From positions 1 to 33,367 of the forward strand of contig CALAJS010000217.1 of assembly GCA_937922825.1 (NCBI GenBank): a stretch of DNA of 33,367 nt. Reading direction: 5' to 3'. Under the pieces are notes generated by a model, which worked only from the letters and a program-made list of their open reading frames with translations, did not search any database and was not told the DNA's origin. This DNA is from an uncultured Bacteroidia bacterium. Lineage in GTDB: Bacteria > Bacteroidota > Bacteroidia > J057 > CALLMJ01. This document shows positions 9,072 to 27,942 of the stretch, in pieces; position 1 is the stretch's first letter, and each line of letters opens with the position of its first letter. The position numbers and the translations under genes were made by a program.

Positions 9072-9953
9072 TCAGAAATAGAACCAATGCCATCGTAGAT
9101 AGTGTTTGTTCCATTCTAATGCAGGCAAAGGCAAATGAATTGTATCCAAAACAAAAAATAAAATTTTAAGTACCTTTTTATTAGTAATAATTTTAGAGCA
9201 ATTCACATCGGGAGCGAAGTACCATTGTCTAAATTCTCTTTGGAGAATGATTTTTTTGTCTATTTTTCCGTATTCACCTTCTAGCCCATGAGCACCGTAT
9301 CCTACTGCAAAGTTAAGCCAACGAGGGAAACGGTTCGTTTGATTTAGAAAAGCAGGTATATCTACAACTAACCAGTAGGTTTGCCCGTTGTAATCTTTAA
9401 AGATGGAAGTAATTCCTTTACCAAAAAGATGAGGGTATTGATTGGCATAAGCGGTTCTATGAAAGGAGAATTTCCATTGAATACGTTGTTCATTAAAAGC
9501 CCAAACATTCACTGCGGATAGTAAGGAACCTGATGCATTGGCTATTAAATCTGTCCAGGAGGCACCCCATTTTTCAGTGAAACCATCAAAAATTTCTAAT
9601 GGTGCTTGAAAAGTAAACCCTGCTAGAGCTGTAACTATCCCTCTTGTACTCCGTTTATGCCCTGCCCAAGCCAATAATTCATTGACCATTTTAGATTGAT
9701 GATAGGCTGTCCATGCATGCCCTACTTTATCTACTTGTTTCCACTCTTTAGAATCATCAAAAAAATGAAACTTTGTTTTCGGTACATTAGCATACCATGA
9801 AATCCCTGTATACGTGTATAACCCCCCAACTACTCCAATACTTGTACCTGCAACAATCCAAGTTTTGTTAGCATTGGGCATAGTGTCGTTATCCCAAAAC
9901 CCTTGACCCATTATCTTAAATGGCATTAAAAAAAATAGTATATATAACTTCAT
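9072..9953 (-). CDS. Secreted hypothetical protein (possibly DUF2279-like periplasmic protein).
   Basis: N-terminal signal peptide MKLYILFFLMPFKIMGQG. Aromatic-rich 293 aa protein. The family assignment is tentative. Confidence 0.45.
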   Translation of the reverse strand: MKLYILFFLMPFKIMGQGFWDNDTMPNANKTWIVAGTSIGVVGGLYTYTGISWYANVPKTKFHFFDDSKEWKQVDKVGHAWTAYHQSKMVNELLAWAGHKRSTRGIVTALAGFTFQAPLEIFDGFTEKWGASWTDLIANASGSLLSAVNVWAFNEQRIQWKFSFHRTAYANQYPHLFGKGITSIFKDYNGQTYWLVVDIPAFLNQTNRFPRWLNFAVGYGAHGLEGEYGKIDKKIILQREFRQWYFAPDVNCSKIITNKKVLKILFFVLDTIHLPLPALEWNKHYLRWHWFYF

Positions 9954-10384
9954 TTTTCATAGGTTTTGATTTTGATTAAACGGACTTGCGTAGTAATACT
10001 ATCTTTTGTTCGAGAAAATACTAAAATATCAGGTTTTAGAGTATCTATGTTCAATGGAATTTCAAAGTTTGTTTCGCTTTTATGGGTGTACAATTTTTGA
10101 GTTTCTGTATCTATTCTCCATTTGCCTTTTTCTAAACTACCATTCAATTGGATTTCGTAGGTGTTGTCTTTATTAAAAAGGAAATAGGAATTAGGTCTTA
10201 ATTTTTGTATTTCTTCTTGTAATCGGTCGGTATCAACAGACTTTGTCATTCCATGAATTCTATAATTATCAACAAGCCATTTTCCGTGTAGAAGTTTCTC
10301 TTGTGAGGAATGTTCATTACAGGCACATAAAAATAAAATAAAATAAACACAGAGTATACTTCGGGGCAACATATTTTTATGCAA
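9950..10384 (-). CDS. Hypothetical lipoprotein.
   Basis: Signal peptide followed by a lipobox-like LCAC. 144 aa. 4-bp overlap with the downstream gene. Confidence 0.45.
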   Translation of the reverse strand: MHKNMLPRSILCVYFILFLCACNEHSSQEKLLHGKWLVDNYRIHGMTKSVDTDRLQEEIQKLRPNSYFLFNKDNTYEIQLNGSLEKGKWRIDTETQKLYTHKSETNFEIPLNIDTLKPDILVFSRTKDSITTQVRLIKIKTYEK

Positions 10385-10401
10385 AAGTAAAGATTTTATT
10401 A

Positions 10402-11160
10402 TTACTTACTCCATTCCCAAGCCAAAATTCCACATGCTATGGCTACATTCAAAGACTCAGCTTTACCTGATTGAGGAATGCTTATGCTTTGTGGTATTTT
10501 TGGGTTCCATTCGGAGATTAGACCACTCGCTTCATTTCCCAACACAATAAATTGGTATTGTTTTATAGGAATTTGCGTAATAGGAATGCCTGAAAGTTCT
10601 GATTTTAACATTTTTGAACTATATTGCTTGATTATATTTGGAACAGAAACATAATAAAAAGGAACGCGAAATATAGCTCCCATGCTTGCCCTCACTACTT
10701 TCGGATTGTAAATCTCTACACATTCATGTAAAATGACCCCATCAATATTAAATGCGTCGCAAATTCTTAATATTGTCCCCAAATTACCAGGGTCTTGGAC
10801 ATGGTCTAATACAAAAAATTTTTTGTTGTGAATATCTTGGGGGAAGGTATGTTCAATTTTCGCAGCAACTGCTAATACTCCTTCCGAATTTTCTAACTGG
10901 CTTAATCTCTTAAATTCATTCTCTTTACAAATATATCCTTCGATCATCGTACCTAAATCTTCAAGATTATGTAAATCTAATTTTTCTGATATTACGACTG
11001 CCCGCAAAGGAACTTTTTCTTTGATTGCTTCTGCCAACAATTTTTTCCCTTCTAACAAAAAAAGACCTTCCCGTTCTCTATCTTTTTTGTTTTGAAGCCT
11101 CGAAAAATATTTTAATTTATTTTGACTGATAGGAATAAACGGCATGTTTTGAATAAACAA
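10402..11160 (-). CDS. TrmH/SpoU-family RNA 2'-O-methyltransferase.
   Basis: SPOUT motifs GNLGTILRICDAFNIDGVIL, VLGNEASGL and ESLNVAIACGILAWEW. Confidence 0.8.
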   Translation of the reverse strand: MFIQNMPFIPISQNKLKYFSRLQNKKDREREGLFLLEGKKLLAEAIKEKVPLRAVVISEKLDLHNLEDLGTMIEGYICKENEFKRLSQLENSEGVLAVAAKIEHTFPQDIHNKKFFVLDHVQDPGNLGTILRICDAFNIDGVILHECVEIYNPKVVRASMGAIFRVPFYYVSVPNIIKQYSSKMLKSELSGIPITQIPIKQYQFIVLGNEASGLISEWNPKIPQSISIPQSGKAESLNVAIACGILAWEWSK

Positions 11161-18984: not shown

Positions 18985-20511
18985 CTAGTATTTTGTTACA
19001 AATCTACTTTCTCTCGCTTTGGTAATCCCCGTATCAATATACTCTATAATCTTGTGATTGAGCTTCTCATATATATCTTCCTCAATTTTTAATATTTTTC
19101 TAAACTCACGAAAAAGTAAATTAATCTCATCTATATTGTCTGGGTAAATTTTCTTTTTAGCTTTTTTTAGTTTTTTGATGATTGTTGTATGGGAAAAAGA
19201 ATCCACTCCATGCGCAGCGATAGATTCATTCCGTAAACTTTTCAAATCTTTTACGTAATTTTTAAAATTCATTTTTTGTTTGAACTCAGGGGAATTCTCT
19301 AATTCTTTATCATGTTCAATAAAATAATTCAGCAAATTTTCTGTAAGATAAGTAGTAGGATTATCCTCTAAATACCTTATTTCTTTTTTTTCTAAATAAA
19401 GTTTTAAATCTTCTTTATCAATTCTTTGATTTTCCTTGTCATTTAAATATTTTTCAAATTCTTGCTTCCAATCGTTTTGTTCAGGATAATTTATTCCAGT
19501 AATGTTGATAACTTCTTGTAATTGTAACATTTCTATAAATCGGAAGATTCTCAAAAGGAAATCATCATAATCACCTTGTTGAAACTTTATGAAACAACTG
19601 TAATACAATTGTCTCATCGTAAATTTTTCTTTGTCCAAATCTTTAACATCATTAATGAGTAGTTCAATAAAGCTATCCTCGGATTTTGGGAAATGTTTTT
19701 GGTTATTTTCTAATGTTTGAATGGCTTTTTCAGGTTGAAAAATCAATCGGTTGTGGGCGTATTCTGCGAGCGTTCGGATTTTAATATCAATCGAGTGGAG
19801 TTCCAGTATAGCGGCATAGTTATATTTTTCAACAAACCTACGAGCAAATTTATATTCTAAAACCGTATAAAAACGTGTTTTTATATCTATTTTAAAACTT
19901 TGTTTTCTTTTTTCATCTACCATTACCTCCACCAAAGACTTATCTTGGGAATATAGATGTAGTACTACAAAACGAACGGCGTTATTGATAGCGTCTATAC
20001 CACCAACTAAATGTAAGTATAAATTTTCACTTTCAAAAATTTTTTCTTTAAAAGGAGAAGTGGATAGTTTTTCTAACATGAAATCATACATATCATGCAG
20101 ACTTATTACGTTTTCATGGACAGGTAAATGATAGACCTTAACATTTGGATACTTTTTTATGAGAAATTTTTCTAATACCATTCCAAAATAAACGGTATCT
20201 TGATTGTGTTTTTCGTATTGGTCTGTTGCTACCAAAACCACATTATCCAATGTAATTCCTTCCTGCTCAACCATTTTAAGAGTAGGTGTAACAATTGGGA
20301 AGTCAATGTAATCTAGAAAAAAACTAAAATAACGATAAAGAAATTCTCCCAATACTCTTGCAGGAATATTATAAATAGATTTATTACTATTAGTTTCCTT
20401 TTTTAGTTGAGTATATTCCTCTAGGATTTGCGGAGGAATATTGGTATGAGTAAAATCTTCTGTTTTTAATTGTATGTCTCGGGTTCCAAGTGTTATAATT
20501 AATGTATTCAT
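18985..20511 (-). CDS. csm6: Csm6-type CARF-HEPN ribonuclease.
   Basis: The N-terminal Rossmann-like CARF pattern (IITLGTRD...VVLVATDQ...LHLVGGIDAINNA) resembles Csm6/Csx1 LGTS and TSGTK motifs. The C-terminal HEPN motif R-x6-H reads RNESIAAHG. It is the last gene of the csm operon. Confidence 0.65.
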   Translation of the reverse strand: MNTLIITLGTRDIQLKTEDFTHTNIPPQILEEYTQLKKETNSNKSIYNIPARVLGEFLYRYFSFFLDYIDFPIVTPTLKMVEQEGITLDNVVLVATDQYEKHNQDTVYFGMVLEKFLIKKYPNVKVYHLPVHENVISLHDMYDFMLEKLSTSPFKEKIFESENLYLHLVGGIDAINNAVRFVVLHLYSQDKSLVEVMVDEKRKQSFKIDIKTRFYTVLEYKFARRFVEKYNYAAILELHSIDIKIRTLAEYAHNRLIFQPEKAIQTLENNQKHFPKSEDSFIELLINDVKDLDKEKFTMRQLYYSCFIKFQQGDYDDFLLRIFRFIEMLQLQEVINITGINYPEQNDWKQEFEKYLNDKENQRIDKEDLKLYLEKKEIRYLEDNPTTYLTENLLNYFIEHDKELENSPEFKQKMNFKNYVKDLKSLRNESIAAHGVDSFSHTTIIKKLKKAKKKIYPDNIDEINLLFREFRKILKIEEDIYEKLNHKIIEYIDTGITKARESRFVTKY

Positions 20512-20523
20512 GATAAAAATTAG

Positions 20524-21645
20524 TTAAAATAATGTAAATTTAACAAAACCAAGTGGTGTTCCATCTGATAAGTATCTACGAGTTTTGGGATAAATATCTT
20601 TGTAATGGGCTCTTGGGTCAATTTTTTTTATTTTATCGGATTTATTTTCAATGAAAGAAAAATCTAACCAACCACCGGTCATACCGATATAGCCTAAACC
20701 AAAACCTACACGAATATAAAATTCATTGGGTTTCTTATTATTCATTTTATGAATTAAATCATTAAGTTTATCTAAATATTTTTCAATGGTACTATCACGG
20801 TTTTTATCTAATTGTTCATAATCTTTTTTACATATTTTGATGGTTTGGTCGTGCATGATTTGTAAAAAGGTTTCAGTATTTTCTATTTTGGAGAATACAT
20901 TAACATTATCTGGATAATTTCCTTTTAATAATAATTCGTTATTTTTTAGATATTTATAGGCTGTTATTTCATTGGGAGTTTGTAAATCTACTAAATAGGA
21001 TTGTTTAGGCGAGATACATTCAATAGGTTGCATAACGTTAGGTCTTCCTTTGATTTGGTATTTCCATTCACTACCATGTTTATTTGCAATTTGGACGGAA
21101 TAAATTTGGGTATTTTCAAAATGGGCGTCGTAAATTCTTAAAAACTTCATGAGATTGTTTTGAGTTTTATTAAAGAGATAATCTAAAAGCGGAGCATCCT
21201 TAGGTTTATCGGATTCAAAGCATTCATCAAGTTTTTTTAGAACATGGGTATCTTTTCCAGCGATAGATTTACGAACAATAAGCGTTCTTAAAGCGCCTTT
21301 CAAGCTAGAGCCAGGGATATAAGGTTTTCCCATACCGTTACGAATATTAGATTTAATTTCTTTTTGATAGAGTTTACCGACAACAGGAATTTCACGTGAT
21401 GCTATCTCTTTAGGGGATATACTTCCTGAGATACCTTTGATAAGATTTACGATATTAGTGGAGTCTTCTATGGCGTCTACCCATCGGTCTATGTTATTTT
21501 CTCCAATGTAATGATATACTTTTTGGGGGTCTATGATATAAATTTTTTGGGCTTTCTCGTCATAGAGATAGTCTAGATTTTCATATAATTTTTGCCCTGA
21601 ACCGATATGGACGGGCGTAATGGTTTCAATTTGAATTTTCGTCAT
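20524..21645 (-). CDS. csm5: Csm5 (RAMP, Cas7 group).
   Basis: N-terminus IETITPVHIGSGQKLYENLDY matches the Csm5 consensus. G-rich loop YIPGSSLKGALRT. Confidence 0.75.
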   Translation of the reverse strand: MTKIQIETITPVHIGSGQKLYENLDYLYDEKAQKIYIIDPQKVYHYIGENNIDRWVDAIEDSTNIVNLIKGISGSISPKEIASREIPVVGKLYQKEIKSNIRNGMGKPYIPGSSLKGALRTLIVRKSIAGKDTHVLKKLDECFESDKPKDAPLLDYLFNKTQNNLMKFLRIYDAHFENTQIYSVQIANKHGSEWKYQIKGRPNVMQPIECISPKQSYLVDLQTPNEITAYKYLKNNELLLKGNYPDNVNVFSKIENTETFLQIMHDQTIKICKKDYEQLDKNRDSTIEKYLDKLNDLIHKMNNKKPNEFYIRVGFGLGYIGMTGGWLDFSFIENKSDKIKKIDPRAHYKDIYPKTRRYLSDGTPLGFVKFTLF

Positions 21646-22681
21646 AATTTTTTAAATAAATTTTAAGGAATAACGATTTACCACAACGAGGAATAGGATG
21701 TCCTACATTTTCATCAGGTCTTAAATCTACAATTTTTCCTGATAGTTCATTTGGTGAAAAAAACAAAGAACCTTCTTTGAACATATAAACGCTTTTTTTT
21801 CTTTTACCTGCCCAATATTTATGAGTAGTGCTACTAATATAACCGCCGCATTTGATAAAATCGTAATTAGCATTTTGCAAAATTCCTTGTTGTACTTCTT
21901 CTATGGTTGGGCAGTACAAAGATAAATTGATTGCAAAGTTTGTATTTTCGGGATACTCAAAAGATACAGCGGAAGGGATATATTCAAAATCAAAAGTTCC
22001 CCAGCCGTAAGTTCTATCTCCCCCAAGACCATTATCCCCAAGCAACCTAAAAACGGATTCTATCTCTTTGTTGTAAACATTCGGATTTAACAAACAATAT
22101 AAACCTGCTTCTGGCATAAATTGTAGAGATTGCGTGTAGTAAGGAACGGACATTTGAACCATTTCATGGTTAACTTCACTTACTGAAATGCTTGCTCTTT
22201 GGTATTCAGCTAATTTAAATAGGGGTTTTATAGGTTCTGAATTCTGAGACGAAAGAGTTAGGAATAATTCGTCTTTACTAAATGCGTTCAGGGGAATTTT
22301 TATAGAAGTTTGGGGATTTAAAAGAACGTATTGCATAGCGTATTGGTCCAAAAATTGGAGGTTTTTAAATTTTTTGTGATAGGATATATCAGGAGTACTT
22401 TCTGCAATCTCGAAAGGCAAGCGGATAAAAGGTTTAGGGAAAAATAATTGGTCTTTATAGAAGGGGAAAGCACTACTGATTTGGGCGAGTTTATTTTGCC
22501 ATTCGATATTTTGTTCGGCTTGCCAAGGACCGAATAGTTCTAACGCTAAATAATAAAGGGCGGCTTTCAAAGTATCAGAGTGAACTACATGAAAAAGTTG
22601 GCTTTGGTCTCCTTTAGCTATACTTAATTGTAGAGGCTGCCGAAAATGTAGTTTTACTACATCAAACGTTTGCTTTTTCAT
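21626..22681 (-). CDS. csm4: Csm4 (RAMP, Cas5 group).
   Basis: N-terminus KLHFRQPLQLS...HSDTLKAALYYLA fits the Csm4/Cmr3 pattern (xSDTLFSAL). C-terminal glycine-rich region. Overlaps csm5 and csm3 as in compact csm operons. Confidence 0.7.
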   Translation of the reverse strand: MKKQTFDVVKLHFRQPLQLSIAKGDQSQLFHVVHSDTLKAALYYLALELFGPWQAEQNIEWQNKLAQISSAFPFYKDQLFFPKPFIRLPFEIAESTPDISYHKKFKNLQFLDQYAMQYVLLNPQTSIKIPLNAFSKDELFLTLSSQNSEPIKPLFKLAEYQRASISVSEVNHEMVQMSVPYYTQSLQFMPEAGLYCLLNPNVYNKEIESVFRLLGDNGLGGDRTYGWGTFDFEYIPSAVSFEYPENTNFAINLSLYCPTIEEVQQGILQNANYDFIKCGGYISSTTHKYWAGKRKKSVYMFKEGSLFFSPNELSGKIVDLRPDENVGHPIPRCGKSLFLKIYLKNYDENSN

Positions 22682-23399
22682 AGTTAGTAAATAAATTGCG
22701 TAAGGTTTCGTTTTGGGGTATGGGATAGTCTTTTTCTTGTTCTTGGAATTTATAGAAACCTGCTGTTCTTTCTTTTATTTCTTGAATGAAAAACTTTACT
22801 TTTCCGTAACCTCTTGAACCACAGCCACCTAAATAGTCATTTTCGATTAACAATAGCCCCGCAAACGTATCATTTACTAATTGTTTTTCGTCATCAATAT
22901 CAAAGATATTGAGCACCATATTCAAGCGGAAACGAGCTTCTGCTGGAACACGCTCAAATGTTCTCGGAGTTGCGGCAGAAGTAATTCTATCTATTACTAC
23001 TTCTGTTTTACTTTCCGTGTAGGGCAAATCCGTATTTACGAAATCTTTATCGTCATTTAACAAATCCGCATCATACACTATAATACGTGAAGATCTTTGT
23101 TTTTCATCTCCTGACGAGCATCCAAATAATTTAGAAGAGTTCGTATTCGGATTTTCGGATGGTCCGTTATTTACTTTTCCCATAGATTTATTACCAATTG
23201 TTCCGTCACGAATCTCAATTAGACTACGCATTTTTCCTTTAATGGAACTTCCAGGAATATAAGGCTTGTTTGTCAAGGGGTTACGAATCACAGGACTATC
23301 TACTCCCCCAATGGATAACACCGAGGAACTTCCCCCCACTCTTATGCCACTCAATGCTTTAATTTCACCTTTGATAATAATTTTTTTTACTAACTTCAT
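22662..23399 (-). CDS. csm3: Csm3 (RAMP, Cas7 backbone subunit).
   Basis: ALSGIRVGG...PYIPGSSIKGKMRSLIE is the canonical Csm3 G-rich loop. 245 aa. Confidence 0.8.
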   Translation of the reverse strand: MKLVKKIIIKGEIKALSGIRVGGSSSVLSIGGVDSPVIRNPLTNKPYIPGSSIKGKMRSLIEIRDGTIGNKSMGKVNNGPSENPNTNSSKLFGCSSGDEKQRSSRIIVYDADLLNDDKDFVNTDLPYTESKTEVVIDRITSAATPRTFERVPAEARFRLNMVLNIFDIDDEKQLVNDTFAGLLLIENDYLGGCGSRGYGKVKFFIQEIKERTAGFYKFQEQEKDYPIPQNETLRNLFTNYEKANV

Positions 23400-23414
23400 A
23401 TCTTATGCTATTTT

Positions 23415-23837
23415 TTAATTTCCACCATGTGCTTTGTGATACGCTAATATTGCTTCTAATAAGTCTACGTAATTCTTAAACTTTTTTTCTAAGTTTTCTT
23501 CATTCGAAATTACGGCTTGATGTGCTTTACTCATTAAATCTTTGAAAAGGTCTAGCCCTGGCTTATTTGCACGTTTAGCTGTGTAAGCTAATTTGGGCTT
23601 TAGCATGTAGAAGGCATTTTTTTCGCTTTGAATACCTTTCATTTGAATGCGCTTAACCTCACCAAAGAAATTTCGTATTTGCGAGGTAGTTAAATCTCCA
23701 TTTTTGATTTCTTTTGCGAAATTTTCACAATACTCAATAGTTTGGGAATCAAACCCATCGGTTATCCAACTGGATTTAAAATCCTCCAATATTTTTCTAT
23801 TGTTGGTTTCTTTGTTTTTTGTTGGTTTTGAGTTCAT
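23415..23837 (-). CDS. csm2: Csm2 (Cas11 small subunit).
   Basis: 140 aa with a helical composition, sitting between cas10 and csm3. The conserved small-subunit segment TSQIRNFFGEV is present. Confidence 0.65.
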   Translation of the reverse strand: MNSKPTKNKETNNRKILEDFKSSWITDGFDSQTIEYCENFAKEIKNGDLTTSQIRNFFGEVKRIQMKGIQSEKNAFYMLKPKLAYTAKRANKPGLDLFKDLMSKAHQAVISNEENLEKKFKNYVDLLEAILAYHKAHGGN

Positions 23838-23852
23838 ATTATTATTGAATTT

Positions 23853-26123
23853 TTAATTTTCGGAACGAATTTCTAATTCTGCCCAGCGAGCGGCTACGCC
23901 TACTAAATCTATATAATCATAGTCGCTGTATGATTTACTACTATTTAATAAGCAATCTTTTTGTAATTGCTCTAAAAATAATTTTAGGTCTTGGTTATGA
24001 CGGTTTGAGTCAATCATTCTTTTGATGTGATAGGCTAGCAACCATTTCCATTGTGGATTTTGTTTTTTTTCTGTGAGTTCTTTTTTTAGTTCGTAGAAAT
24101 TCATTAGTTTGGTTATCAAGGATTTATTTATATTTTGTACGGTAATAAAATTAACGAACTTATTTTTTAATTCTTTGACTTTAGGGAATTCTTTTTCCCA
24201 GTTCATAGGGAAATCTAAGAAGGTGATAGCGTTTTTTTCTTGATCTTTACAGCGGTGTTTTTTAGATTTTTTTTCTGCTTCATGGGATAAATTGGCGGCT
24301 TGAAGGATGGGATATTTATTATTGACGAGTACTATGCCGCCTGATAAAGTAAAATAGGGATTATGGGCAACCCATTGCTTAAATTCTGTATAGATTTGTT
24401 CTGCGAACAGGACTACTTGTTTCCAATCGCCAATTACAAAAAGGTCATCTCCTCCTGCATACAGGATATTGATATGATTTTTATATTCATTTTGTTCACG
24501 TAGGAGATAAAGGTAACCTCGGAAAAAGTAATCGAGGCTTCTACTGATATTGGATAAGCGTACGATAGTTTTTTGGGATCCACTTAAACCGTTCATAAAA
24601 ATTTGCCCTAGGTTGTCCACGTCCATACGTAGTATTCCTAAACGTTTCAAACTTGTACTTGCAAGTAGGTTTTCAAAACTAGTTACTTTTTGGCTTTTGC
24701 TGTAATTCCATTTTAATCTGGATTGGAAATTTGTGGGCACTTTTTCGTGAAAATGAATATAGCGTAACGTATCCATGGATAGGGGTTGTCGGGGTATATT
24801 ATCATATACTTTACAGCCCCAACCAGAAAAGGGGCTTTTTATCGTGACGTCTCGGGGTAACGTTTTATGCATCAAATGAATTTCTTTCATGTCCACTAAA
24901 CATTCCCCTAACTTAATTAAGCGTTTGGTTTGCTCCGATAATATTAAATTTTCACTTTCTCCGTATTCTTCTACTTCTTCGCCTGTGATGCGGTCTATTT
25001 CGCTTTCTATATTTCCCCAAGGCTCAAAAAAGCTAACATAATTTTTTTCTATGATGAGATGGTATTTTCTACGTTTTTTTGCATTTAAAATTTCTGATAA
25101 ATTACGCCATTTTTCGTGGATTTTGTATTGTTTTATATCTAATGGTGATAATGTAGTATATCCTAACGAAAGATATAACTGCATTTTGTGGATACTTAAT
25201 AGATCTTGTTGTATTTTTTTTTCTATTTCATGAAACTCTGAACGTATCTTTTCCGTATTCGGTGCTAATAAATAAAAGCCTCCTCCCGATACATAAACAA
25301 TGTGGGATTGCGTTAAATCTAACGTACGGATGAGTTCTTGTACTGCCCATTCCGTGATTAACTGTAAATAATAGGAACGTCCTTTTAGATTTTTTCCTGC
25401 TGATTTATTGATTACATCATATATAAATGCTTGTATGCCCGATAAATCTCCTCCAATCAACAAAAATACGGGCAGGTCTTCTTTTAAATTTTCTATTAGG
25501 TCTATATTTCCTAACTCACTGACCACGTAATCATAAATACTCAAACTTATACCATTGAAGAATTGTAAGTAATCATAATAAGAAATATCGGTAGGTGCAG
25601 TAGTGTAAGGTATAAAAGAAGTATATTTTTGTAGTAAACTTAGCAGATTATCATTAAAATATAGCAGGTTCGGGCTTGATACATTTTTACATTCTTCCCT
25701 AAATTCTGACCATATTATCTGATAATCGGTTTGTATGGTATCTATTTTTCTTTCTTTTAGTTTTTTGGGGAATATTCGTTGTTGAAAACTAAATATTTCT
25801 GATGGGTAATAGTATTTTTCGGTAGTTTTTTTATCCCATTCCTTTACACTTTGAGCGACTGGTATCAAATAATTATCTTTTGTTTGCTCTGATATAGTTT
25901 CTGTTACTACCAATCTTTTTGACCATTCTTGTAACGTTTTGTACCATTTAGAATTATAGATATTTGATACTTGATATTGTATTTCGTTCCACTTTGGTTC
26001 GAGGCAACTTTCCATTAATGTTTTTACCTCTTCTGTGTTCTGGTTTGCCCTTTTACACAAGCCTTCAATATGGCTAATTTGATTACGTAAATATAAATAA
26101 TTTTTTTCGTTTTCTGGTATCAT
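23853..26123 (-). CDS. cas10: Cas10/Csm1 large subunit. It carries Palm/GGDD cyclase domains but no recognisable N-terminal HD motif.
   Basis: Palm1 reads LLIGGDLSGIQAFIY (the GDxxGIQxFI pattern) and Palm2 reads ILYAGGDDLFVIGDW (GGDD). No H-D dyad could be found in the first ~150 aa. Confidence 0.8.
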   Translation of the reverse strand: MIPENEKNYLYLRNQISHIEGLCKRANQNTEEVKTLMESCLEPKWNEIQYQVSNIYNSKWYKTLQEWSKRLVVTETISEQTKDNYLIPVAQSVKEWDKKTTEKYYYPSEIFSFQQRIFPKKLKERKIDTIQTDYQIIWSEFREECKNVSSPNLLYFNDNLLSLLQKYTSFIPYTTAPTDISYYDYLQFFNGISLSIYDYVVSELGNIDLIENLKEDLPVFLLIGGDLSGIQAFIYDVINKSAGKNLKGRSYYLQLITEWAVQELIRTLDLTQSHIVYVSGGGFYLLAPNTEKIRSEFHEIEKKIQQDLLSIHKMQLYLSLGYTTLSPLDIKQYKIHEKWRNLSEILNAKKRRKYHLIIEKNYVSFFEPWGNIESEIDRITGEEVEEYGESENLILSEQTKRLIKLGECLVDMKEIHLMHKTLPRDVTIKSPFSGWGCKVYDNIPRQPLSMDTLRYIHFHEKVPTNFQSRLKWNYSKSQKVTSFENLLASTSLKRLGILRMDVDNLGQIFMNGLSGSQKTIVRLSNISRSLDYFFRGYLYLLREQNEYKNHINILYAGGDDLFVIGDWKQVVLFAEQIYTEFKQWVAHNPYFTLSGGIVLVNNKYPILQAANLSHEAEKKSKKHRCKDQEKNAITFLDFPMNWEKEFPKVKELKNKFVNFITVQNINKSLITKLMNFYELKKELTEKKQNPQWKWLLAYHIKRMIDSNRHNQDLKLFLEQLQKDCLLNSSKSYSDYDYIDLVGVAARWAELEIRSEN

Positions 26124-26124
26124 T

Positions 26125-26820
26125 TTAATGAACTTTTGTAATCGGCTCTTTTATTACTGCTTTCTGAACGGTCCCGTATCCTATACTTGCTAATTTACCA
26201 ATATTCACATCTATTGGTAAGGTCATATTCACTGAAAAGTCAATATCTAAATTATACAATTTGATACCTTTATAGTTTATCCATCGTTCTTTTCTTATAT
26301 CTTCTATTACTGCTTTTATAGGGGATTCTAAGGTATATCGAATACCTTCCGCAAAATTGATGATATGGGCTACTAGGATTCTTTCTAACATTTCTACCCG
26401 AGCTTTTAACGAATAGGTCTTAAAATACATTTCATAATTTTTGGAGTTTAGGGGCAACCAATTCTTTAAACGATATCTTACTTGCTCGTCCCATACTTGG
26501 ATAACTATGGGTTTTAAATACATATTTTCTATATTTAACTCTCTTCTTTTGCCATGGAAGTCTATGTATAAAGGGGGATTTCCTATATGAGATAGTAAAC
26601 AATCACTAGCTTCTTCTAAACATACTAAATGGGCTTTTTCGTCTTTTGTATTAAACTGTGCCAAAGGATAACGAAACCGTTTACTTCCGTCTTCTAAATG
26701 ATGATGAAAATACTCTGCTCCTTCTTGTATCTCTTTTGAAAATGCATAACGGAATGCTCGTATTTCTTCGGAGTTAATCCCTAAATCAAAAGTTAGACCT
26801 ATATATTTCAACTTTTTCAT
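26125..26820 (-). CDS. cas6: Cas6 crRNA-processing endoribonuclease.
   Basis: First gene of the operon, 231 aa. The C-terminal G-rich loop NIGKLASIGYG compares with GIKTSLGMG in characterised type III Cas6. Confidence 0.55.
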   Translation of the reverse strand: MKKLKYIGLTFDLGINSEEIRAFRYAFSKEIQEGAEYFHHHLEDGSKRFRYPLAQFNTKDEKAHLVCLEEASDCLLSHIGNPPLYIDFHGKRRELNIENMYLKPIVIQVWDEQVRYRLKNWLPLNSKNYEMYFKTYSLKARVEMLERILVAHIINFAEGIRYTLESPIKAVIEDIRKERWINYKGIKLYNLDIDFSVNMTLPIDVNIGKLASIGYGTVQKAVIKEPITKVH

Positions 26821-26870
26821 CTTTTGTTTTATTTTTACGTTTTTATCTGCAAAAATAAAATAAAGTTTTT

Positions 26871-26917
26871 TATACGAAAATTTTTTTTACTTAATTGTAA
26901 AAAAAATTTTCGTATAA
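26871..26917. promoter_or_regulatory. Near-perfect 47-bp palindrome in the cas6/csm promoter region. Candidate operator.
   Basis: TTATACGAAATTTTTTTTAC-TTAATT-GTAAAAAAAATTTTCGTATAA. The arms differ by a single T. It lies 50-100 bp upstream of the cas6 ATG. Confidence 0.4.
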
Positions 26918-27018
26918 ATTTGTAAGCAATTAAAGTTCTTTGAAATCAAGGGATATTATCTAAAAATATAGGTGCTGTGAAGCACTAATCTTAAATTTTA
27001 AATTCTAATTACTATTAA

Positions 27019-27472
27019 GTGTATATACTATCTATTAAGCGGTGTTTTCTGCAACTTATTATCTGTTTCATGAAAAGTGTATACACTATTGAAATTATAA
27101 ACAAGAAATTGTTTATGACTTCGTTACCACAATAAGCGTAGCAACACCAAACCTTTTAATAAGTTAAGTTGCTACGCTTTATTCTTTTATAGGAGATTAT
27201 TTCCAATTTGTTCTTTGATAGTTAAACTAATTTTTATACTTTTGCTAAATATTAGAATTCAAAAATTGAGCTTTTACATAAAAAAACAATGTAAAAAAGT
27301 GTTAAAAATAAAAAAAAAGGAGAAATAACCATTTGATATTGAGATAGTTATGAATTATCGGTGTATATACCATCTAATTAATAGGAGTTCACAACTTAAA
27401 AATATGGCATACGATGAGATCATTGGGTGTATCCACCATCTGATCAGTAGGTGTCCACAACTATCCACATAT
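27019..27472. repeat. Cluster of four degenerate copies of a 36-45 bp direct repeat upstream of cas6. Possible vestigial CRISPR array.
   Basis: Copies begin at 27019, 27077 (partial), 27361 and 27427, each starting GTGTATATAC(C)ATCTA. Copies 3 and 4 match at 29 of their first 36 positions and lie 66 bp apart, as expected for a 36-nt repeat plus a 30-nt spacer. Confidence 0.35.
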
Positions 27473-27492
27473 CGTTATGCTTGTCTTTTTGG

Positions 27493-27942
27493 TTAAATAT
27501 CTAATATAGCCATTGTTAGGCGACTAATACAGGTAAGTTTGCCTTTTTCATTAGTGATTTGGATATCCCAGACGTGTGTAGTTTTTCCTAGATGGATAGG
27601 GGAGCATTTGCCAAATACATATCCATGAGTTTCAGAGCGAATATGATTGGCGTTGATTTCTAAACCTACGCATTTTTTGGTAAGTCCAAGATGAGTAATA
27701 TAAAGTCCTGAGGCAGTTGAGCCAATAGATTCCGCTAAAACTACGGACGCTCCCCCATGTAGTAAACCGAATGGTTGTTTCGTTTTAGCGGTCACAGGCA
27801 TTCTTGCCACTAAATAGTTAGGTCCAATTTCTATAAATTCAATCTCTAAAAATTCTATCATGCAACCTTTTGAAAAATCGTTTAATTGTTTCGGAGTAAC
27901 TTCTGGAAAAATTTTTTCTGTCATATTTTTTGATTTAAACAA
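27493..27942 (-). CDS. Hotdog-fold thioesterase (PaaI/DHNA-CoA hydrolase-like).
   Basis: GLLHGGASVVLAESIGSTA motif. 149 aa. Confidence 0.7.
   Translation of the reverse strand: MFKSKNMTEKIFPEVTPKQLNDFSKGCMIEFLEIEFIEIGPNYLVARMPVTAKTKQPFGLLHGGASVVLAESIGSTASGLYITHLGLTKKCVGLEINANHIRSETHGYVFGKCSPIHLGKTTHVWDIQITNEKGKLTCISRLTMAILDI

Follow-up and report, generated by a model that had tools for sequence, protein, structure and literature searches.

What is the cluster of related repeat units that lies directly upstream of cas6 in contig CALAJS010000217.1 of an uncultured Bacteroidia bacterium (assembly GCA_937922825.1): a CRISPR array, what is left of one, or something else altogether? The window, by which we mean the whole stretch of 33,367 nucleotides (nt) that was analysed, carries four such units in the intergenic region 26821-27492, between cas6 and a hotdog-fold thioesterase gene that faces it with its 3' end; a first-pass annotation had described them as a mutationally decayed CRISPR array adjacent to an intact effector operon or, alternatively, as a set of regulator binding sites. 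All four units were recovered where that annotation had placed them, the two strong copies matching at 29 of 36 positions when counted from 27361 and 27427 and being spaced 66 nt apart. Our analysis indicates that the region very probably comprises the array of a type III-A (Csm) CRISPR system encoded on the chromosome, live but seen here in truncated form, together with the fossil trailer of an older array.

The live array, as it is seen in the window, consists of the strong pair of repeats and the spacer between them, with the thioesterase gene as its neighbour:

27360..27395, plus strand: R1, the leader-proximal CRISPR repeat, 36 nt, GGTGTATATACCATCTAATTAATAGGAGTTCACAAC, identical to the array consensus
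27396..27425, plus strand: the single spacer, 30 nt, TTAAAAATATGGCATACGATGAGATCATTG, opening TTAAAAATATGG; identical in the sister contigs L009 and L010
27426..27461, plus strand: the degenerate terminal repeat, which differs from R1 at 7 of 36 positions and retains the final 6 nt, CACAAC
27493-27924/27942, minus strand: the hotdog-fold thioesterase gene, flanking the array trailer

A repeat search of the window returned this pair as a 37-nt direct repeat (27360-27396 and 27426-27462; 81% identity) with starts 66 nt apart, and the boundaries given above, with 36 nt for each repeat, were set from seven perfect copies present in the sister contig L001. Allowing up to 3 mismatches, GTGTATATACCATCTA has 4 matches in the window against 0.28 expected, a number that was reached in 0 of 100 shuffles; one of these four, at 6961, is probably due to chance, and no further array was found in the 33-kb window. 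R1 lies 539 nt from the start of cas6, and the degenerate repeat is 31 nt away from where the converging thioesterase gene has its stop codon, which is why we assign 27426-27461 to the trailer end of the array. A degenerate last repeat is normal for the trailers of CRISPR arrays, and the spacer at 27396-27425 is presumably the oldest, trailer-end spacer; its length of 30 nt agrees with the 30-31-nt spacers of L001 and of a related contig, L004. The repeat RNA folds no better than shuffled sequences on either strand and is essentially unstructured: the only recurrent fold is a 4-bp mini-hairpin at its 5' end (GGUG/YACC).

Sister contigs were collected by exact-protein look-up from the same metagenome (ENA ERZ6863929) and from the Logan assemblies of ERR9287621, ERR9287890 and ERR9287625. 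In L001 (36,185 bp) cas6 is identical and the 540-nt upstream region nearly identical to that of the window; at the site of the window's first repeat, this contig runs into seven perfect copies of GTTGTGAACTCCTATTAATTAGATGGTATATACACC, the reverse complement of window positions 27360-27395 and hence of R1, which recur with a period of 66-67 nt and with unique spacers of 30-31 nt until the contig ends. From the thioesterase side, L009 (92,642 bp) and L010 equal the window through the degenerate repeat and the spacer and end in the consensus repeat, L009 exactly at its last position, and from the cas6 side L002, L003 and L005 end in the first repeat. The strong pair is the first (consensus) and the last (degenerate) repeat of a real array that has at least nine repeats in the sampled population. 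For this main array the diagnosis of mutational decay therefore has to be given up, as R1 equals the consensus that a multi-spacer array shows at this locus in sister contigs and the last repeat alone is degenerate; it can be retained for the two weaker units at 27019 and 27077, which resemble a fossil trailer. The direct junction seen in the window reflects either a short-cut that the assembler took through the repeat, or a strain that has lost its interior spacers via repeat-repeat recombination.

If the latter were the case, the window strain would really possess a one-spacer remnant array that is heading for loss, which is a weaker form of the decayed array and a possibility that we take seriously without favouring it. 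The window and L001 show two upstream differences, namely the length of a T-run and a T/G change in a hairpin loop: these two small haplotype differences indicate that several strains coexist, and coexisting strains could vary in array content. The stop of L009 at the end of the consensus repeat is expected if the next base varies among strains, including a leader-adjacent variant, and it also fits a remnant that cas1 and cas2 were not found nearby. However, R1 is a perfect consensus and the operon is intact, with mutational decay not being evident; contigs that break in the repeat from both sides are the classic mark of an unresolved array, and the step from leader-R-...-R-S-Rdeg to leader-R-S-Rdeg (R, repeat; S, spacer; Rdeg, degenerate repeat) is a legal walk through the assembly graph.

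Returning to the reading as a live array, arrays of the same repeat family are found in three related type III-A lineages, with Cas6 identities to the window protein of 82%, 43% and 34%. In the closest of these, L004 (the same contig as L012, CALLMJ010000030.1, from a metagenome-assembled genome labelled 'uncultured Bacteroidia bacterium'; Cas6 82% identical), 11 copies of GTTGTGAACTCCTTTTATTTAGATGGTGATAACACC, including one copy cut by the contig start, occupy the equivalent place upstream of cas6. L006 (43%) has an array of GGTGTGCACACCATCTATTTGAAAGGTAATTACAAC that starts downstream of the csm6-like gene and is co-directional with the Csm operon, and L021 (34%) exhibits a complete array of 15 repeats of AGTGTATGACACCTCCATTATAACAAGGATTACAAC, again co-directional with the operon, in which point mutations are confined to repeats 7-15, the six cas-proximal ones being perfect. 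The search for an intact array with a related repeat, which the first-pass annotation had proposed, is thereby answered in the positive (7 perfect repeats in L001, 11 in L004/L012 and 15 in L021). The trailer of L021 comprises a partial repeat (10555-10585), a 30-nt spacer and a degenerate repeat that precede a GC-rich terminator hairpin, every part lying on the RGTGTAT...ACAAC strand. Because of the polarity of this complete array, we take the transcribed form of the repeat to be 5'-RGTGTAT...ACAAC-3', which corresponds to the plus strand of the window: consistent with this orientation, the degenerate repeat lies at the thioesterase end and the AT-rich leader at the cas6 end, and the window and L004 repeats share their last 13 nt, with the differences clustering at the 5' end and in the middle of the repeat. 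A strict repeat pattern gave no matches in GTDB genomes and JGI metagenomes; a looser family pattern matched the L004 contig alone in GTDB and was without a match in JGI metagenomes and in IMG/VR.

Some further observations were made on these relatives. The main array of L021 is parted from its trailer by a two-gene cassette inserted in the array (8780-10690), encoding a 456-aa protein with a faint HEPN_RiboL-PSP match and a 118-aa MJ1673-family protein. The Cas10 of the type III-A lineage of L021-L024 is unusually short (483 aa). In L008, a 127-nt tandem repeat of about 5 copies with 92-97% identity (6770-7404) is found downstream of a related Csm operon; as it has no unique spacers, this repeat is not CRISPR-like.

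Between cas6 and the live array lie the two weaker units, which we term psiR1 and psiR2, followed by two hairpins:

27018..27055, plus strand: psiR1, a degenerate copy of the full-length repeat, AGTGTATATACTATCTATTAAGCGGTGTTTTCTGCAAC, 1 nt deleted and 2 nt inserted
27056..27075, plus strand: psiS, a short spacer-like segment, read off the sequence between psiR1 and psiR2
27076..27090, plus strand: psiR2, a truncated copy with the 5' 15 nt only, AGTGTATACACTATT
27093..27120, plus strand: a hairpin after psiR2, 10-bp stem (z = -3.5 for a 44-nt segment)
27134..27189, plus strand: a terminator-like hairpin, the hairpin itself extending to 27178, with a 12-bp stem AAGCGTAGCAAC/GTTGCTACGCTT and a 22-nt loop, then T-rich TATTCTTTT

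The first-pass annotation had noted indels in the copy at 27019 and a truncation of the copy at 27077, and both descriptions agree with the alignments. In the first repeat search these units appeared as a 16-nt match at 27019 (15/16) and as a weaker 23-nt match at 27077. Gapped local alignment of psiR1 (27019-27047) with repeat positions 2-30 gave 24/29 identities with one gap and a score of 31, compared to a null maximum of 16.3 +/- 2.2 in simulated AT-rich sequence of 540 nt, where a score of 30 was reached in 1 of 300 simulations: psiR1 is significantly repeat-derived. The score of psiR2 against the consensus (16) is not above chance; psiR2 and psiR1 have AAGTGTATA[T/C]ACTAT in common (14/15), and on the basis of this common start psiR2 can be regarded as a truncated relative of psiR1. 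Both units begin AGTGTATAYACT, and in both of them the outer G..C pair of the mini-hairpin of the live repeat has become A..T, a shared replacement that suggests their origin from a common variant. In the predicted fold psiR2 pairs with the 5' part of psiR1 in a stem of 12 bp, and the plus strand of 26925-27195 folds well below shuffled sequences (z = -4.4). The hairpin at 27134 was identified from the fold; a simple terminator scanner had passed over it, its loop being longer than 8 nt. The order of degenerate repeat, spacer, more degenerate repeat and terminator is the same trailer architecture as in L021, where an analogous hairpin comes after the degenerate terminal repeat. We infer from this likeness that the psi units and the two hairpins (27018-27189) are probably what remains of the trailer of an earlier array, for which the conserved divergent promoter would have served, and that a newer leader and array would have arisen directly downstream of it.

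The control elements on either side of the psi units are as follows:

26821..27017, no strand assigned: divergent promoter region, with the cas6 -7 box, an inverted repeat and a plus-strand -7 box
26850-26857, minus strand: cas6 -7 box TATTTTTG, a consensus match only
26869-26890/26897-26918: perfect 22-nt inverted repeat, TTTATACGAAAATTTTTTTTAC and GTAAAAAAAATTTTCGTATAAA with a 6-nt gap, between the divergent -7 boxes
26915-26922, plus strand: -7 box TAAATTTG, facing the psi units; a consensus match only, conserved in L004
27186..27359, plus strand: AT-rich leader of the live array, 174 nt, with a Bacteroidota -7-type box TACTTTTG at 27237-27244

The leader of the live array is the same in L001-L003 except for the length of the T-run, and similarity to the leaders of L004 or L006 was not detectable. 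In case of the approximately 150 nt nearest cas6, which include the TAAATTTG box, homology to the L004 leader region was found (z = 6.4). The 22-nt inverted repeat could be an operator or a bidirectional hairpin, and its L004 counterpart is palindromic only in part. A terminator-like hairpin, GTGCTTCACAGCAC with CTATATTTTT after it, is present on the minus strand at 26972-26985; it lies upstream of the cas6 promoter and would halt antisense read-through from the array side.

The genes next to the array belong to a type III-A system, in agreement with the description of an intact effector operon in the first-pass annotation; they were assigned by NCBIfam and Pfam:

26125..26820, minus strand: cas6 (Cas6b family), Pfam Cas6b_N and Cas6b_C (PF17955, PF17262), PDB 4z7k
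18985..26123, minus strand: type III-A effector operon, NCBIfam equivalogs and Pfam
23853-26123, minus strand: cas10/csm1, NCBIfam and Pfam, GGDD motif
23415-23837, minus strand: csm2, NCBIfam and Pfam
22662-23399, minus strand: csm3, NCBIfam and Pfam
21626-22681, minus strand: csm4, NCBIfam and Pfam
20524-21645, minus strand: csm5, NCBIfam and Pfam
18985-20511, minus strand: csm6-like HEPN protein, 508 aa, Csm6-type HEPN match

Downstream of cas6 on the minus strand, the gene order is thus cas10/csm1, csm2, csm3, csm4, csm5 and the csm6-like gene. Cas10/Csm1 and Csm2-5 all score above the NCBIfam type III-A equivalog cut-offs, with bit scores (cut-offs in parentheses) of 482 (170) for TIGR02578, 66.7 (30.6) for TIGR01870, 205.7 (90) for TIGR02582, 186.8 (55) for TIGR01903 and 90.8 (38.3) for TIGR01899, and Cas6 matches PDB 4z7k, the solved Cas6b of Methanococcus maripaludis, with E = 2.9e-12. 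Chromosomal housekeeping genes surround the locus: a xerC-like recombinase, hpf, tRNAs and a protein with a type IX secretion system tail. Within the operon, the HEPN match of the protein in the csm6 position (18985-20511) is weak and covers residues 299-442 only; this protein is without an NCBIfam match, its sequence has no relative in the PDB, and the approximately 300 aa at its N-terminus, where the sensor domain is expected, are unassigned. The Cas10 N-terminus reads ...QISHIEGL... where the HD motif is expected, and a Pfam HD domain is absent; the Cas10 proteins of L006-L008, which are relatives at 43-44% identity, are longer and show faint HD matches. The Cas10 of the window may be cyclase-only.

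The proposed course of events is as follows. Transcription of the live array would proceed on the plus strand, divergent from cas6, with the array starting at 27360 after its 174-nt AT-rich leader. The Cas6b-family Cas6 is predicted to cleave the precursor CRISPR RNA within each repeat, 8 nt ahead of the repeat's 3' end, and so to release CRISPR RNAs (crRNAs) with the 5' tag UUCACAAC that would be loaded into Csm; binding of target RNA would then activate the Cas10 cyclase, the GGDD motif being present, and through it the Csm6-like HEPN protein. Where Cas6 cuts, which tag results, that the array is expressed and how the psi units came about are all points of inference.

From the arrays 18 spacers could be extracted, all different and 27-31 nt in length, and the spacers are wholly different between lineages. 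The arrays break assemblies, which points to strain-level variation. The adaptation module cas1-cas2 is optional for type III systems, and cas1 and cas2 are unannotated in L004, L006 and L021 also; as these loci are without cas1/cas2 and yet show strain-level spacer turnover, spacers are presumably acquired in trans. Since targets of the spacers were not found, the bias of target strands could not be used to orient the array.

Several results weigh against our interpretation of the region. Taken alone, the window contains just two repeats that are 81% alike and would fail a standard CRISPR caller, and an Rfam scan of 26700-27600 with E values up to 10 returned no CRISPR direct repeat family on any of the four units, only noise. 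The psi units are absent from L004 and their other copies occur only in near-identical strains, so that comparative support for them is nil. Characterised Cas6b enzymes leave an 8-nt tag, AUUGAAAC (PMC3479195), compared to which the last 8 nt of the repeat are TTCACAAC on the plus or TATACACC on the minus strand; the predicted tag UUCACAAC differs from that of these enzymes. The 18 spacers, in concatenated form, found no match among INPHARED phages and PLSDB plasmids, nor did the 22-nt cores of four spacers in IMG/VR; with an uncultured host, such negative results are uninformative. No Cas1 or Cas2 family match was obtained in the scanned open reading frames (ORFs) of at least 60 aa in the window. 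Finally, each promoter box is no more than a match to the consensus: Bacteroidota -7 motifs are sensibly placed but not enriched window-wide, and a scan for sigma-70 promoters found no enrichment.

The presence of a degenerate mini-array in a cas locus raises the question of whether the units guide the effector to its own genes. The mini-array, be it psiR1-psiS-psiR2 or R1-spacer-Rdeg, could be an RNA of the CreR/CreA/crlRNA type (bioRxiv 10.1101/2023.03.10.532045) that brings about autoregulation by directing the effector to the transcript or the promoter of cas6. A degenerate repeat-spacer-repeat unit inside a cas locus and near a cas promoter (27018-27090) is indeed the defining anatomy of CreR, and the psi unit is placed between the conserved plus-strand -7 box (26915-26922) and the terminator-like hairpin in a strongly structured segment; in addition, the reverse complement of the array spacer 27396-27425 matches the start-codon region of cas6 (26809-26838) at 20/30 positions, with p ~0.0015 only if the comparison is restricted post hoc to that 70-nt region. 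Over the 8-kb operon, however, 17% of shuffled spacers reach 20/30, leaving the complementarity of spacer and promoter without significance, and the polarity of this match is wrong for pairing of a plus-strand crRNA with the cas6 mRNA; the spacer concerned is moreover merely the trailer spacer of a normal array, and the match of the psi spacer (27056-27075) to the cas operon is not above the null. The CreR work covers the types I-B, I-E and V-A and leaves type III unmentioned (bioRxiv 10.1101/2023.03.10.532045): CreR is thus documented for DNA-binding systems, unlike the RNA-targeting type III system found here, and the psi unit is restricted to near-identical strains, is missing from L004, the relative with 82% identity, and has the likeness of an array trailer such as that of L021. 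An RNA of this kind is therefore unlikely. We also consider it improbable that the psi unit (27018-27189) is transcribed from the 26915-26922 box as a structured RNA of approximately 250 nt ending at the terminator-like hairpin, which would act as a type III crRNA-like regulator or decoy and tune cas6-csm expression or crRNA loading. If this were true, Cas6 or Csm would recognise the repeat-derived 5' mini-hairpins of this RNA, and it would be an analogue of CreR in an RNA-targeting system, something undescribed in the literature covered.

The regulator binding sites offered as an alternative by the first-pass annotation fare worse. Here, the 10-mer GTGTATAYAC would be a palindromic operator for a dimeric regulator, or the site of a repeat-binding protein, and the four units would be its binding sites; this palindrome is all that speaks for them, as the 10 bp of GTGTATACAC at 27077 form a perfect palindrome, the remaining copies come close to one, and two of the copies are situated between the array and the divergent promoters. 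Yet the likeness among the strong copies and to psiR1 spans 29-36 nt and hence reaches well past the palindrome, relatives show 7-15 alternations of the 36-nt unit with unique spacers, and a regulator gene was not found in the locus, which makes an operator highly unlikely. A dispersed, non-CRISPR repeat family, named in the same annotation as the finding that would overturn an array, or a miniature inverted-repeat transposable element, is scarcely credible: a weak 39-nt inverted repeat (72%; 26987-27025 and 27235-27273) does bracket the psi units and the terminator, but the 33-kb window contains no further copies, arrays adjoining cas6 were all that could be found by pattern scans of GTDB genomes, JGI metagenomes and IMG/VR, and the pattern of the terminator stem was not found in IMG/VR.

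With the region read as a type III-A array, its closest points of reference can be considered. Staphylococcus epidermidis RP62a carries type III-A (Csm) CRISPR arrays. The window locus has the same gene set of cas10/csm1, csm2-5, csm6 and cas6, a 36-nt repeat with spacers in the low 30s, a Cas6-dependent 8-nt 5' tag ending in AAC (here predicted) and the prerequisite for cyclic-oligoadenylate signalling in the form of the GGDD motif. In contrast to S. epidermidis RP62a, the repeat sequence is unrelated, Cas6 belongs to the Cas6b family, cas1/cas2 are not adjacent, the array lies upstream of and divergent from cas6, and the Cas10 N-terminus exhibits SHIEG where the HD motif is expected. CRISPR-2 of Flavobacterium columnare, a type VI-B locus, is an example of the Bacteroidota arrays that have no adaptation genes next to them. 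Its repeat (PMC5395568) shares with that of the window a length of 36 nt and a 3' end in ...ACAAC, and the two loci have in common 30-nt spacers and the absence of cas1/cas2 beside the array, whereas only the last 5 nt and scattered positions can be aligned and the effector of the window is Csm rather than Cas13b: this is a loose resemblance and not membership. The repeats of type I-B Cas6b systems (Methanococcus maripaludis, Clostridium thermocellum; PMC3479195; 4z7k) are similar in that the Cas6 of the window matches Cas6b in Pfam and the PDB and in that their repeats are 36-37 nt long and weakly folding; they differ in their last 8 nt, which here are UUCACAAC and not AUUGAAAC, and in that the effector here is type III-A and not type I-B.

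Outside of the CRISPR locus, the window holds three further elements. A gene on the minus strand (1008-3467) encodes a protein of 819 aa with the shoulder and repeat domains of the Major Vault Protein (PF11978, PF17795) and a weak Band_7 (SPFH) match: this is a bacterial protein of the Major Vault Protein type. A tandem pair of identical tRNA-Lys(TTT) genes, spaced 88 nt apart, precedes tRNA-Leu(GAG) (5610-5859), and three direct repeats with a period of 51 nt and 68-90% identity to the first lie at 8282-8423, within an ORF of 413 aa with a Peptidase_S74 chaperone domain.

Our findings call for caution with metagenomic contigs, as a two-repeat, seemingly degenerate array in such a contig can be a live and diversifying one collapsed to its ends, which sister contigs ending inside the repeat will expose. 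Whilst the present picture of CRISPR is unaltered by these results, they add a 36-nt repeat family (5'-RGTGTAT...ACAAC-3'), uncatalogued in Rfam, that is used with a Cas6b-type Cas6 and type III-A effectors in uncultured Bacteroidia.

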